Assembly (NCBI GenBank): GCA_027451825.1
Contig: DAIDHZ010000001.1
Coordinates: forward strand, 96,745-160,744
Length of the DNA stretch: 64,000 nucleotides
Direction of reading: 5' to 3'
Origin: Chlamydiota bacterium
GTDB taxonomy: Bacteria > Chlamydiota > Chlamydiia > Chlamydiales > SM23-39
The notes beneath the pieces are model-generated. The model was not told where the DNA came from and searched no databases. It saw only the letters and a list, made by a program, of their open reading frames with translations. Every line of letters begins with the position of its first letter. The first letter of the stretch is position 1. Position numbers and translations under genes: made by a program. Positions 13,803 through 49,066 of this stretch are shown here, in pieces.

Positions 13803-13974
13803 TACCGAAACAACTTGAAGAATCGGGAATATGACAAGAAGGCTCTCCTGAATTTGAGCCAAGCGAAGCTGACGCCGAAACAGCTCAACTTAAGAAGCTT
13901 AAGCGATGCAGGCGGGTCTCAAATTCAGAGACAGCCGACGCAGTCGGAAACCGATTCTTCAGGTTGTTTCGGTA
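13803..13974. mobile_element. MITE copy A (172 bp), TA target-site duplication
   Basis: Terminal inverted repeats taccgaaacaacttgaagaatcgg / ccgattcttcaggttgtttcggta with one mismatch. It is flanked by TA on both sides (13801-02, 13975-76). Confidence 0.75.
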
Positions 13975-14325
13975 TAATCCACTACGCAAATAATTGTACC
14001 GAAGAACGTTGCAAAAAACGCAAAAAAAATACTTTCGACAACTTCTTGCAAATCCAATACGATAGACACCGTTTTGGTAATGTCGGATTGTTCTATTGCA
14101 ATAATCCACCTGAAACAGTTCGTTTTTCTCAAAAGAGAGATGTCAGAATGCCAATGATTCACGGATCATGGCAGAGCACATCAAGACAGAACTTCGTGCC
14201 GACGTCTAATGAGAAGGAATCTCTGTATTCCGGTCTCTCAATAAAATGCAAGGGATGGAGGCAGATGAGATTACTGCTTCCGGCTCTGGTGTAGCGGATG
14301 GACATCGGCACAGGTCTTCTCGCCA

Positions 14326-14418
14326 TTGCGGGGCCGGCGGCCCCTCTGGCTTGAACGTCAACAACAACAACATTGACAACGACAATGTTGGGGTGGGTGT
14401 GGCGCTTCCTTCGGAAAT
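14326..14418 (+). repeat. DGR template repeat (TR)
   Basis: 93 bp, identical to the reverse complement of 15949..16041 except at 12 TR adenines. It contains six AAC codons (reads ...GLNVNNNNIDNDNVGVGVALPSE). Confidence 0.9.
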
Positions 14419-14448
14419 CCTGTTATTTTCCCTGCTGAGTCTTACAAC

Positions 14449-14811
14449 TCAGTGGGGGACGGACTTAATCCAGCCGCCAACCATTTTTCCAATCTCTTGT
14501 ATCAATGCCTGAATCATAAGATATTGTTGATTATCAATCGTTCGAGTATCCTTTGATAATCGAATCAGCACTTTCAATAAATCAAGTTTATCGCTGATCC
14601 TATAAAGACAATCGAGCCGTTCCTCTCCTTTTCGATGACCGGTTTCAATTAAAACTTCTAAAAGAGCGAGTGTGGTATTCTCGCATTTTTGCCAAAGCGT
14701 ATATCGTTGAAGTTTCGGAATCGTTGGCTGGTACTTATGAAGCAATGTATAAAGATCGTAGATTTTATGGAAAATCGGAATATCTAAAACAGATCGGACT
14801 TGAGTTGTCAT
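14449..14811 (-). CDS. avd: DGR accessory variability determinant (Avd, four-helix-bundle family)
   Basis: 120 aa, predicted all-helical. The C-terminal EIGKMVGGWIKS resembles the EVGRILGSWI of the Bordetella phage Avd. Size and position next to the RT and TR fit an Avd. Confidence 0.8.
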   Translation of the reverse strand: MTTQVRSVLDIPIFHKIYDLYTLLHKYQPTIPKLQRYTLWQKCENTTLALLEVLIETGHRKGEERLDCLYRISDKLDLLKVLIRLSKDTRTIDNQQYLMIQALIQEIGKMVGGWIKSVPH

Positions 14812-15850
14812 GAAAGTAGCTCGATTTCTCTTTGCAAAAATGACTTCTTTGCATCAACTTTTTCAAAGTTGGGATCAGTTTAAACGAAAAAAGCGTAAAA
14901 GGGAAGACGTTCAATATTTTGAGAGGCATTTAGAAGACAATATTTTTCAACTACAACACGACTTAGCCACCCTTCAATACAAACACGCCTCTTATCACCA
15001 ATTTTACGTTACCGATCCCAAACAAAGACACATCAGTAAAGCTTCTGTCAGAGATCGGCTCGTACATCAATTAGTGTACAGCATTTTGACAGAGGAGTTA
15101 GATAGAAAATTCATTTTCCATTCTCTCTCGTGTCGTTTAAGAAAAGGAACTCACGTCGGAGTTACACAACTACAGAAAATGATTCAAAAAATCAGCACTA
15201 ACGGAAAATTGCCTTGTTTTGCATTAAAAATGGATATCCGAAGATTTTTCGATACAGTGAACCACAAAATCCTTAAGGTCCTTCTTCGAAAAAATATTCA
15301 GGATAATCAAGCTCTGAAAATTATCGACATGATCATCGATAGTTTTAAAATCAAAGAAACTCCGGAAGGAGCCGTGGGAATCCCTTTAGGAAATGTGACC
15401 TCTCAATTTTTTGCCAACTTATACCTTCATGAACTAGATGATTTCGTGAAACAAAATCTCAGAGAAAAATACTATTTAAGGTATTGCGATGACTTCATTA
15501 TTTTGTCTAATGACGAAATGCACCTAAGATATTTGATCTTAACCATTCAAGAATTTCTACAGACCCAACTTCAATTAGAGCTTCATCCAAAAAAACTGAT
15601 GATTAGAAAATTAACTCAAGGAATCGACTTTGTCGGTTCTATTTTGTTCGAAAAATACGTCATAACGAGAACTCGAACAAAGAAACGGATGAAACATCGA
15701 TTAAAGGAAGCATATGAAAACTATTTAATAGGAAAAATCGATGCCACGTCAATGGATCAAAAACTCCAATCTTATTTAGGAATTTTATCTCACGCAAATC
15801 AATATACGCTATCCACCGCCTTAAAAAATGCATACTGGGTTCGAAAGTGA
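14810..15850 (+). CDS. DGR-type reverse transcriptase
   Basis: RT motifs are present, including IPLGNVTSQFFANLYL (the DGR-diagnostic [I/L/V]GxxxSQ) and the catalytic RYCDDFIIL (YxDD). Its ~340-aa size is typical. The alternative start at 14840 (MTSLHQLF...) may be the true one. Confidence 0.9.
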   Translation: MKVARFLFAKMTSLHQLFQSWDQFKRKKRKREDVQYFERHLEDNIFQLQHDLATLQYKHASYHQFYVTDPKQRHISKASVRDRLVHQLVYSILTEELDRKFIFHSLSCRLRKGTHVGVTQLQKMIQKISTNGKLPCFALKMDIRRFFDTVNHKILKVLLRKNIQDNQALKIIDMIIDSFKIKETPEGAVGIPLGNVTSQFFANLYLHELDDFVKQNLREKYYLRYCDDFIILSNDEMHLRYLILTIQEFLQTQLQLELHPKKLMIRKLTQGIDFVGSILFEKYVITRTRTKKRMKHRLKEAYENYLIGKIDATSMDQKLQSYLGILSHANQYTLSTALKNAYWVRK

Positions 15851-15868
15851 TTCATTTTAAAAAAATTT

Positions 15869-15887
15869 CAGCGCCGAAGCGACGCTG
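15869..15887 (-). terminator. Hairpin between the convergent RT and target genes (target-gene terminator / VR-proximal hairpin)
   Basis: The minus strand reads cagcgtc-gcttc-ggcgctg (7-bp stem including one G.U) followed by aaattttttt. It lies 43 nt past the target stop codon and about 60 nt past the VR. Confidence 0.5.
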
Positions 15888-15929
15888 CCAAAAAACAAAA
15901 ATCAAGTACCTAATACAAATTCCAAGTAA

Positions 15930-47262: not shown

Positions 47263-47290
47263 ATTAGCTCGGCTATACCCGTTCCAGTTG

Positions 47291-47321
47291 AAAGGCTTAG
47301 GAGATTAAATCCCAAGCCTTT
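47291..47321 (+). terminator. Hairpin downstream of the MepB-family gene
   Basis: aaaggcttagga-gattaaa-tcccaagccttt (12-bp stem, one mismatch) running into TTTT. Confidence 0.5.
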
Positions 47322-47327
47322 TGAGGC

Positions 47328-47509
47328 ATACTGCGCTTAGGTTAGGTTTTGAAGATTTAGACTGGCTGAGACCTTGCCAAATCGATCTTCGTCGTCGCCC
47401 TTCCCAATTTGGAATGATGCTCCTTCTGCAGACCGCGAGCAATGCTCGCCTCGATTTGGCTTTGTCTCGAGAGAGTCCAAATCTTCAAAACCTAACCTAA
47501 GCGCAGTAT
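47328..47509. repeat. 182-bp palindromic element with 35-bp terminal inverted repeats
   Basis: atactgcgcttaggttaggttttgaagatttagac pairs with gtccaaatcttcaaaacctaacctaagcgcagtat (one mismatch). Inner pairs: gccaaatcga/tcgatttggc and gcgagca-a-tgctcgc. Confidence 0.65.
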
Positions 47510-47672
47510 AGAAAGATGCTATTTGAAGAACCTCTCCTTGAAAAAGGAGAGTATTCTCCTTCGCTTAAAGAGAAGGAGCTCTACGGCGCTTAAATGTAGA
47601 AGCTTAAGCTAACCCACCTCTGAAGGGATGGGATTGCGCCCGAGCAAGCGTTCAAAGCCCTTCTTCTGACGT

Positions 47673-48779
47673 CTATTTTTTTTGTTCATTGCCCGAAGGT
47701 GGATTCGCAGGTTTGTTAGAAGATGCCTGTTCTTGCAATATTTGCGTAGAGCGTGAATACGCTGATAACGCCTGAGGTAAAAGCGCCGAAACTGGATCCG
47801 TATTTTGCGGGATAATCATCGTATTACTCTGACCCAACATTCCGGTCCAAGTCTTTAGCGACTCACTTGCAAGACGAATCGCTGCCGCTTCCGGATTCTT
47901 TCGAATTGCCTCGCCGATTCTTTCAAGTGCTTTTGCTTCTGCATCCGCCTCTATCAATCGTTTTTGCGCATTTCCTTGAGCTTCATTAATCTTTGCAATT
48001 TTGTCCCCTTCAGAACCAAGTTCTGCCGCTCTTTTCTTCCCCTCGGCCTGGTTAATAGCTGCGGATTTTTCCCCTTCCGCATTGAGAACCGTTTCCCGTC
48101 TTTTCCTTTCAGAGGTGACTTGACGAGTCATTTCTTCTTCAATGTGTTTAGGAACAGTAAACCCTTTGATTTCGTATCCTAAACATTCAAGGCCATATTG
48201 AGTTGTGTGTTGATTCACAACATCAAATACTTTTCGATTGATCTCTTCCCTCTTATTGAGAAGTTCATCGAGTGTTAATTCCCCAACTGCATTGCGCATG
48301 GCAGACTGAGCATAAATGGTCGTCAAGCTAAACGGAGAATCTGCTCCATAGGCAGCTTTTTTTGCATCGGTCACTCGAACGATAACGTCTCCTCCAAGCT
48401 GAACTTTAATATTATCTTTTGTAAAAGCTTCTTGAGGCGCTATAGAAAAAGAAACCCTCTTCTCGGGGAAACAATAACGAATGTTATCAACAACAGGAAT
48501 CAAGAAATGAAGACCCGGAGAGAGAACTTTATGAAATTTCCCAAGTCTTTCCACCAAAGCAACTTTTCCTTGAGGGATCACCTTAAATCCAAGGTGATGT
48601 AAATTATTTTGATCTAAAGATAAAGGACTTGATTCTCGAATTTCTGTTGACGTACGACTGGAAGAAAAATGGCGCTGAATCAGTCCTACCGGGATGGTTG
48701 CAGCAAGAAGACGGCTTGCTTGAGGACTTAATCGACGGACCAATCCAGATGAACACCCACTGACAAGATGCATAAACAA
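47673..48779 (-). CDS. SPFH/band-7 protein, stomatin-like protein 2 (paraslipin) type
   Basis: The core resembles SLP-2 throughout (VERLGKFHKVL.PGLHFLIPVVD.IRY ... ERKRRETVLNAEGEK.AAIN.AEGKK). The N-terminal 45 aa lack a TM segment and any acidic residue. Confidence 0.85.
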   Translation of the reverse strand: MFMHLVSGCSSGLVRRLSPQASRLLAATIPVGLIQRHFSSSRTSTEIRESSPLSLDQNNLHHLGFKVIPQGKVALVERLGKFHKVLSPGLHFLIPVVDNIRYCFPEKRVSFSIAPQEAFTKDNIKVQLGGDVIVRVTDAKKAAYGADSPFSLTTIYAQSAMRNAVGELTLDELLNKREEINRKVFDVVNQHTTQYGLECLGYEIKGFTVPKHIEEEMTRQVTSERKRRETVLNAEGEKSAAINQAEGKKRAAELGSEGDKIAKINEAQGNAQKRLIEADAEAKALERIGEAIRKNPEAAAIRLASESLKTWTGMLGQSNTMIIPQNTDPVSALLPQALSAYSRSTQILQEQASSNKPANPPSGNEQKK

Positions 48780-48859
48780 CTCCTTAAATCTTTCAAAGAG
48801 CTAGCAGTATACTTATTGCTCTAATAGTACTCCAAAGATTTTTTGAAGGTGGAGAGGTA

Positions 48860-49066
48860 TACCGAAAAAAATTCAAGAATCGGTTTTGGGCGGTGTCGGC
48901 TTTATCTCAAAATTCGGATCCTCACTCGTGCCTTGCCCATTGGGCAATGGTCACTCGCTCCGAATGCAAATTTTGAGAAGCCTCCTTGCCCAATGGCGAG
49001 AAACTCGCATTACGGGCGAAGCAATGCTTCGTCCTCCATTTCCCGATTCTTGAATCATTTTCGGTA
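48860..49066. mobile_element. MITE copy E (207 bp, longest/complete form), TA-flanked
   Basis: TIRs taccgaaaaaaattcaagaatcgg / ccgattcttgaatcattttcggta, with TA at 48858-59 and 49067-68. It contains both internal modules found separately in copies B and C. Confidence 0.85.

Follow-up and report, generated by a model that had tools for sequence, protein, structure and literature searches.

The repeat family described here was found in a 64,000-nucleotide stretch of a Chlamydiota genome (assembly GCA_027451825.1, contig DAIDHZ010000001.1, positions 96,745 to 160,744; hereafter the window, numbered from its first letter). Five copies, A to E, lie in the window, and we consider it highly probable that they are a non-autonomous DNA transposon of environmental chlamydiae, a miniature inverted-repeat transposable element (MITE), whose terminus comes from an insertion sequence of the IS630 family. 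The MITE is a non-coding unit of about 160 bp with 24-bp terminal inverted repeats, each made up of a box TACCGAAA at the tip and a box AAGAATCGG inside it with seven variable bases between them. In the model that we favour, this terminus corresponds to the right end of an insertion sequence of the IS630 family, about 1.1 kb long. The parent would be laid out as TA, TACCG(A/C)TCG..., an open reading frame (ORF) of about 340 residues, ...CCGATTCTT-N7-TTTCGGTA, TA, and its product would carry helix-turn-helix domains followed by a DDE_3 domain. Such a transposase, made elsewhere in the genome, would bind both ends of the MITE, excise it and paste it into a TA dinucleotide, which would thereby be duplicated. 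The movement is presumably cut-and-paste, the two boxes are probably sub-sites for a bipartite DNA-binding domain of the transposase, and the IS630-family transposase identified below is the likely mobiliser, as judged from the termini. This is a well-known kind of bacterial mobile element and not a new one.

Termini and flanks of the window copies

A search of the window for the pattern TACCGAAA-N7-AAGAATCGG with up to three mismatches returned exactly 10 sites, which form five inward-facing pairs; shuffled versions of the window gave a mean of 0.26 sites, and no shuffle reached 10. The five pairs are the same five full copies that an initial annotation of this DNA had placed in the window. 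Each copy, between 127 and 207 bp in size, starts with TACCGAAA-N7-AAGAATCGG and closes with the reverse complement of the same. The annotation had all copies beginning with TACCGAAA, which is right for the nine termini that are exact to the pattern and wrong for the left terminus of copy C (TACATAAA...), where two bases differ. The outer flanks are TA at all ten ends, as it had also proposed.

The copies have no coding capacity, and the ORFs that run across them are spurious. They are small, non-coding and dispersed, they end in terminal inverted repeats and, at an empty site, they show a TA duplication, all of which are characteristic of MITEs; so is a terminus held in common with a transposase-encoding element, the partner in this case lying outside the window. 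Copy A begins 8 nt past the stop codon of ORF 13085-13795. The end of copy B is 90 nt upstream of ORF 22416-23333, and the last codons of that ORF, with its stop codon (23331-23333), come from the left terminus of copy C, the only window copy that touches a gene end. Copy D is 28 nt upstream of the start of an alcohol dehydrogenase gene (44222-45211, minus strand), and copy E separates a minus-strand gene (47673-48779) from a divergent plus-strand gene (49139-49498), with about 75 nt to either start.

Copy D is absent from a sister genome

A homology search with the alcohol dehydrogenase encoded beside copy D found a 99% identical protein on a 2.5-kb contig (L125) of the chlamydial metagenome-assembled genome (MAG) GCA_027457405.1; going by the names of the nearest homologues, the host of the window is likewise a chlamydia. 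This contig is uninterrupted across the insertion point of copy D (...CGTTA|TACCAAAATTCAGG). Deleting window positions 45239-45400, that is the 160-bp element and one TA (162 nt), restores the L125 sequence with 73 of 76 bases identical. Because removal of copy D together with one TA regenerates the empty site, the element has moved and duplicates TA on insertion. The description of the copies as MITEs with a TA target duplication, first made from the window, is borne out both by this site and by the TA flanks of the wider family given below. A 4-bp duplication, TATA, was considered and rejected; it would leave two extra bases at the L125 empty site. Exact-protein look-ups for five window proteins encoded beside copies gave no match.

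From a single empty site, insertion beside TATA is formally equal to a TA duplication, and the copies are strongly palindromic. Both points would suit a hairpin-recognising single-strand transposase, of the IS200/IS605 'PATE' type or the REP/RAYT type, that inserts beside a TA target without duplicating it. We regard such a mover as extremely improbable. Each end is the 24-bp inverted repeat of the other and contains the conserved boxes, hairpin-less forms of 26-92 bp are still flanked by TA on both sides, and the same end borders a DDE_3 transposase gene of the IS630 family. No Y1/HUH transposase was seen, and neither was a TnpA(Y1) or RAYT gene bracketed by the termini or a strand-specific insertion 3' of a fixed tetranucleotide. 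In their 24-nt inverted termini, TA duplication and adjoining DDE_3 gene the copies differ from palindromic elements derived from REP/RAYT or IS200/IS605 systems.

The region around copy D contains further units of this sort. A second MITE family is represented in the window by a 180-bp element at 47329-47508 with termini TAC(T/C)GCGC..GGTTAGGTTTTGAAG, and a relative of it occupies L125 positions 1-90, about 30 nt from the copy D empty site, at a position where the window shows an unoccupied TA (CACAAAGCTA|ACC). The second family therefore likewise targets TA and is polymorphic, so that at least two MITE families have moved since the genomes of the window and L125 split. In contig L126 the DNA upstream of the alcohol dehydrogenase gene holds a third TA-flanked unit (TACCATTTATGAAAAATAA...). 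Two 182-bp units elsewhere in the window, at 32266-32447 and 53418-53599, have inverted ends of 30-36 nt (89% and 83% complementary) and are without TA flanks.

Occurrence in other genomes

The 24-nt terminus pattern was used to scan contigs from one genome per species and gave at least 111 matching stretches. Among the matches listed, about 94 are true family members, found in at least 37 species-level assemblies (MAGs), nearly all of them Chlamydiota; the labels of these assemblies include Chlamydiae, Chlamydiales, Parachlamydiales, Simkaniaceae, Rhabdochlamydiaceae, Waddlia and 'uncultured bacterium'. Six of them are labelled Verrucomicrobia and one Bacteroidetes, and at least one 'Verrucomicrobia' bin has three syntenic genes in common with a chlamydial MAG, at 47-66% protein identity. 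Seventeen matches in unrelated phyla, single termini in ordinary sequence, served as a control. Further copies without a TA flank would speak against the TA model; what was found, among the matches listed, was TA as the outer dinucleotide at 148 of 160 family termini and at none of the 17 chance matches in other phyla. In metagenome contigs the figure was 63 of 66. Further out, positions -3 and -4 are weakly biased towards T.

Complete elements (n = 67) have a median length of 163 bp and range from 67 to 340 bp; the short forms measure 67-132 bp and the long ones 207-340 bp. Two sub-terminal types, a and b, are distinguished, and symmetric a/a and b/b elements occur besides a/b. Long ORFs are avoided by 54 of 66 elements, and the surrounding genes are arranged in tandem in 20 cases, divergently in 14 and convergently in 9. 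Metagenome contigs of the JACCEC and JACCED sets (L136, L141, L145 and L149) contain up to three full copies and additional fragments in 7-14 kb.

Orthologous spacers of different species were seen to hold elements of different subfamilies and sizes (L023 2849-3007 and L039 3457-3480; L074 3787-3810 and L079 1838-1914), which suggests, at the level of the alignments, independent insertion in permissive spacers and not inheritance. Contigs of short-read MAGs very often stop 27-100 nt inside an element (for example L032, L053, L058, L076, L097, L037, L093 and L116), so that these repeats are a systematic source of assembly breaks in chlamydial MAGs and explain why short-read assemblies are interrupted at such sites.

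No match to copy D was found in a plasmid collection. The 13 pattern matches in viral contigs represent six independent sites, among which a single conserved phage coding site accounts for eight related contigs; partner termini were absent throughout, and we attribute these matches to chance. A protein scan of the viral contigs for an IS630-family transposase found none. Literature searches aimed at chlamydial transposable elements brought up no description of a MITE in chlamydiae within the literature covered.

The probable parent insertion sequence

The initial annotation had noted that the window holds no cognate transposase, and this proved correct: a scan for the IS630-type catalytic motif in the window and in the approximately 94 genome stretches found none, and the sole insertion sequence of the window belongs to the ISNCY family. 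That element was rejected as the parent, its ends being unrelated to the MITE termini. The genome stretches contain no pairs of termini 300-3000 bp apart except two MITEs that flank a host gene, and ORFs that recur beside solo termini were rejected as transposase candidates on proving to be short-chain dehydrogenases.

The parent came to light in metagenome contigs, which were scanned for the terminus followed by TA and filtered against two common MITE interiors. In three contigs the transposase hallmark LNPIERLWK stands beside family termini. In L147 a decayed transposase C-terminus (..LNPIERLWK..) continues into CCGATTCTTGAATCATTTTCGGTA|TA, and all 24 nt of this terminus match the b terminus of copies B and E. 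A composite of C-terminal transposase fragments, used as a homology query, returned more than 4000 homologues, and Pfam DDE_3 (PF13358) was present in 120 of the 120 homologues listed. Two contigs recovered in this way link the protein to the terminus independently of the terminus search. Contig L159, found by protein homology, carries a DDE_3 gene, a GxxExxY gene, a perfect terminus TACCGAAAAAAGTTCAAGAATCGG (17 of 17 pattern positions) and TA; in L160, found by protein identity, the stop codon of the transposase lies 5 nt from a terminus with three mismatches, which is followed by TA. The right ends in L152 and L149 are likewise termini with three mismatches. TA follows the right end in L147, L152, L159 and L160, and the flank in L149 falls within a MITE terminus.

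The ORF of L160 matches the NCBIfam model transpos_IS630 with 170.7 bits (cut-off 100) over model positions 101-296, together with Pfam DDE_3 and HTH_33, and an N-terminal ORF upstream, in L151, covers model positions 2-97, the first third of the model. Across the transposase ORFs Pfam reports DDE_3, HTH_33, HTH_29 and HTH_23. The two ORFs of L151 are one frame broken by an 11-nt duplication, from which it follows that the intact transposase is about 340 residues long. Both L160 and L149 read FCDNARYY...LNPIE with 34 residues separating the second D from the E, a predicted DDE catalytic triad with IS630 spacing. At the other side, five contigs show the left end TA|TACCGATCGTGACTGAAAAATTTGC ahead of the transposase ORF, always flanked by TA. 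A sixth exact copy of TACCGATCGTGACTGAAAAATTTGC stands at a contig end (L129) and a diverged one, with 5 of 25 bases different, in L066, a chlamydial long-read MAG that also bears a family MITE terminus; these two are TA-flanked as well. L066 is a locus of contig CAVSSM010000001.1 that begins within the transposase gene. The left and right ends of the insertion sequence have 19 of 29 positions in common, and its length is estimated from the overlapping contigs at about 1.1 kb. The proposal of IS630-type transposition, first made on the TA flanks, is thus supported by IS630-family transposase genes that have the MITE terminus as their right end (L147, L159 and L160).

Several observations weigh against this derivation. 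No such transposase was seen in the window or in the approximately 94 genome stretches. A complete insertion sequence with both ends was seen on no single contig and is assembled here from the overlapping contigs L151, L149, L152, L159 and L160. At its left end the insertion sequence departs from the MITE terminus, both MITE ends resembling the right end only, and the MITE interior shares nothing with the insertion sequence. Next to more distantly related transposases (66% identity, L154-L158) the family terminus is missing, and no clear inverted repeats were found in those contigs. Finally, a purely parasitic element does not fully account for the conserved asymmetric loops and covarying stems described below.

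One could imagine from this that the match between terminus and insertion sequence is secondary, with MITEs inserted beside unrelated IS630 genes and the real mover another TA-targeting transposase. The missing single-contig copy speaks for this, as do MITE-dense contigs such as L136, L141, L145 and L149, which raise the odds of chance adjacency, and the presence of an insertion sequence inside a MITE in L149. We nevertheless judge it very unlikely. In L147 and L160 only 2-5 nt separate the end of the transposase frame and the inner edge of the terminus; L159 and L160 were retrieved by protein similarity alone, yet show the terminus and TA; no second MITE terminus stands beside these ends; and a sub-terminal CCTAGGC motif is common with a multi-copy contig-end element of another MAG. 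Derivation of the MITE terminus from the IS630-family element remains our preferred explanation.

In L149 the end of the insertion sequence appears to have inserted at a TA inside a MITE terminus. Between the transposase stop and the right end, some contigs (L152 1-740 and L159 699-1846) carry a passenger gene of the GxxExxY / PDDEXK_3 type (TIGR04256, 153 bits), bracketed by inverted AACCACAGAGAGCACAGAGGACACAGAGAA repeats. A transposase-less unit composed of terminus, GxxExxY gene and terminus ends at least eight contigs of MAG JAJPIB (L042, L087, L092, L098, L101, L102, L107, L112 and L070) and is, by this repeated occurrence, a multi-copy element. In a less likely reading of the family, taken up below, the nuclease-fold gene could be an active partner and not passive cargo. 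Mobility of this kind did not come up in a literature search on GxxExxY.

Modules, fragments and short forms

Copy E matches copy B over 137 nt at 99% identity (48858-48994 and 22164-22300), and it matches copy C in inverted orientation over 55 nt at 96% (49015-49069 and 23319-23373) and 29 nt at 97% (48980-49008 and 23381-23409). These repeats confirm a modular build already recognised in the window, and the alignments indicate that E holds both modules, B the main hairpin module, and C the second, 46-nt module with the entire central hairpin lost (Table 1). The near identity of B and E over 137 nt points to recent activity.

Table 1. Positions of the repeat copies, their fragments and other annotated features in the window
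Feature	Position	Strand	Remarks
MITE copy A	13803..13974	+	172 bp; b end left, a end right; TA at 13801-13802 and 13975-13976
MITE copy B	22166..22326	- (b-to-a direction)	161 bp; TA on both sides; module 1 only
MITE copy C	23322..23448	+	127 bp; TA on both sides; main hairpin deleted, module 2 retained
MITE copy D	45239..45398	+	160 bp; TA duplication 45237-45238 and 45399-45400
MITE copy E	48860..49066	-	207 bp; terminus a 48860-48883, terminus b 49043-49066
Copy E module 1 hairpin	~48884-48994		99% identical to copy B
Copy E module 2	~48995-49042		common to copy C
Single-terminus mini form	11382..11406	+	25 nt, TACCGAAACAACCAGAAGA-TCGGTA then TA
Two-ended remnant	45218..45238	+	21 nt, TACCGAAAATCGCTTTCGTTA; end motifs TACCGAAAATCG/CTTTCGTTA
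13-nt match	46260..46272	+	TACCGAAAAATCG; possible remnant, not separable from chance
bAvd-like ORF	14449-14811	-	
Reverse transcriptase	14810-15850	+	
Template repeat	14326-14416		
Variable repeat	15951-16041		at 3' end of ORF 15930-17081 (minus strand; F-box-like N-terminus)
ISNCY-family insertion sequence	17190-18813		26-nt perfect inverted repeats (CGTTAAGTAGAAATGTCCCCTTTTTG); only insertion sequence in window

Solo-terminus fragments had been proposed at three places. Two of them stand, the mini form at 11382-11406 and the one near 45217, which is the 21-nt remnant of Table 1; the third, near 46258, is a 13-nt match at chance level, and the three extra TACCGAAA octamers of the window are within chance expectation (1.65 ± 1.28). 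The 21-nt remnant is also present in the sister genome and is older than copy D, which inserted in its terminal TA. The form at 11382-11406 recurs in other genomes as a 26-bp unit, TA|TACCGAAA-N7-AAGAATCGGTA|TA, in L030, L084, L111, L114, L121, L140 and L109, from at least six genomes. In this unit a single terminus runs straight into TA, and TACCGA...TCGGTA is itself a tiny inverted repeat; it may have arisen by deletion at the TCGG microhomology or may be a minimal mobile unit. Forms of 32 bp and 44 bp were also seen. The shorter forms in general (127, 92, 76, 67 and 26 bp) are probably internal deletions, for example from interrupted gap repair or slippage across the hairpin.

Copies B and C are opposed around ORF 22416-23333 (305 residues, weak DUF7790 match), forming a 1283-bp unit (22166-23448) whose outer 49 nt are 96% complementary and which resembles a composite transposon. 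In L081 (6182-7271), mini elements of 76 and 92 bp bracket an ORF of 220 residues.

The hairpin interior

Each window copy folds as a long rod, with z = -6.3 to -13.1 relative to dinucleotide shuffles (RNA parameters). For an analysis of covariation, 23 two-ended elements from more than 20 genomes were aligned. As RNAalifold on the MAFFT alignment recovered the terminal stem only, the fold of copy D was projected on the alignment and pairs were counted. In the projected fold 86% of cells pair, rising to 97% in the terminal helix across the 23 elements. Two-sided changes were found at 37 of 63 pairs, compared with 22.8 ± 2.6 in shuffles (none of 500 as high) and 15-24 with slid partners; 13 of the 14 pairs of the long inner stem covary, and the asymmetric, purine-rich internal loops are conserved.

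The covarying pairs, their excess over shuffles and slid partners, and the conserved loops are what a second reading of the interior would predict, namely that the element is a MITE by origin and spreads by transposition while its rod is a folded nucleic acid kept by selection, acting either as an RNA terminator, stabiliser or regulatory hairpin of transcripts or as a single-stranded DNA structure in transposition, with the GxxExxY gene as a possible active partner. The RNA folding energy, which is lower on the b-to-a strand in 21 of the 23 elements, and the intergenic position, often adjoining gene starts or ends, fit it too. Were it true, chlamydiae would have used transposition to distribute a functional structured module across their intergenic DNA. 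On balance we think it unlikely. G-T and A-C mispairs are symmetric (34 and 25, p = 0.30), and the orientation relative to co-directional neighbour genes is unbiased (4 and 4). Copy C and many short forms are hairpin-less, yet their termini and TA flanks are intact, and symmetric a/a and b/b forms exist. The elements have a common ancestry, so that the energy bias is not independent evidence. Rfam gave no match at gathering thresholds anywhere in the window, and in copies D and E the promoter and terminator scans remained at chance level, with no terminator-like sites. Self-templated correction of a quasi-palindrome, moreover, works solely in paired segments and would produce two-sided changes there and there alone.

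The selection on structure suggested in the initial annotation is accordingly upheld in one respect, in that pairing is kept by two-sided changes above controls, and not in another, the mispairs being symmetric and the orientation unbiased. A DNA-level palindrome or self-templated correction of its arms explains these data as well as selection on an RNA fold does, and we read the interior hairpin as an inherited palindrome kept at the DNA level and not as a selected RNA.

On its minus strand, copy D contains an outward promoter-like site (45246-45273; TTGCCA, 16-nt spacer, GATAAT, 10 of 12 matches) that faces the alcohol dehydrogenase gene at a distance of 28 nt. Its -10 part falls within the 7-base spacer of copy D itself, and the number of such sites is at chance level for the region.

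Comparison with known elements

The RUP element of Streptococcus pneumoniae is an example of a MITE derived from IS630, in the bacterial branch of the IS630/Tc1/mariner superfamily. As in IS630 MITEs generally, the chlamydial copies are intergenic, non-coding derivatives of 100-200 bp with short terminal inverted repeats, a TA duplication and presumed mobilisation in trans, and their parent resembles the family in its length of about 1.1 kb, its one transposase with helix-turn-helix and DDE_3 domains and the 34 residues from D to E. What sets them apart is the terminus sequence, which is to our knowledge new, and the host, which belongs to the Chlamydiota. Other differences are that the 24-bp terminus alone is common with the insertion sequence, both MITE ends copying its right end; that the interior is a long conserved rod, with the sub-terminal types combined as a/b, a/a or b/b; and that some parent copies carry the GxxExxY nuclease-fold passenger.

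The Correia elements of Neisseria (CREE/NEMIS) have a similar architecture, with a TA duplication, terminal repeats of about 26 bp, a length of 100-160 bp, internally deleted variants, many copies in intergenic DNA near genes and the capacity to form a long hairpin in transcripts. In sequence the two families are not similar. No transposase is known for the Correia elements, while for the chlamydial MITE a cognate element of the IS630 family came to light. They are known for promoter, IHF-site and RNase III processing functions; the promoter scan of the chlamydial MITE, in contrast, was at chance level. Rickettsia palindromic elements, 100-150 bp long, are another case of palindromic repeats spread among obligate intracellular bacteria. 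They are known for in-frame insertion into protein genes, while the chlamydial elements mostly avoid long ORFs (54 of 66), and we know of no clear terminal repeats, target duplication or transposase for them.

Among the chlamydiae, which are obligate intracellular bacteria, the pathogens are nearly devoid of mobile DNA and difficult to modify genetically. The results presented here indicate that environmental chlamydiae host an active TA-targeting system, composed of an IS630-type element and abundant MITEs, in at least 37 species-level genomes, and that it has recently moved. The presence or absence of individual copies provides strain-level markers, and the native pair of transposase and terminus is a candidate genetic tool. 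With copies within 30-90 nt of gene starts and one rewriting a gene end, effects on gene expression are possible.

Other features of the window

A complete diversity-generating retroelement occupies window positions 14246-17081 (Table 1). Its template and variable repeats differ at 12 positions, all 12 at template adenines, and about 350 nt separate the template repeat from copy A, which is upstream of it. The transposase of the ISNCY-family insertion sequence (17255-18535, 426 residues) scores 441.7 bits with NCBIfam transpos_ISNCY_2. The window contains no tRNAs. ORF 36011-37741 (minus strand) includes a tandem repeat of about nine 36-bp (12-codon) units at 36075-36398.

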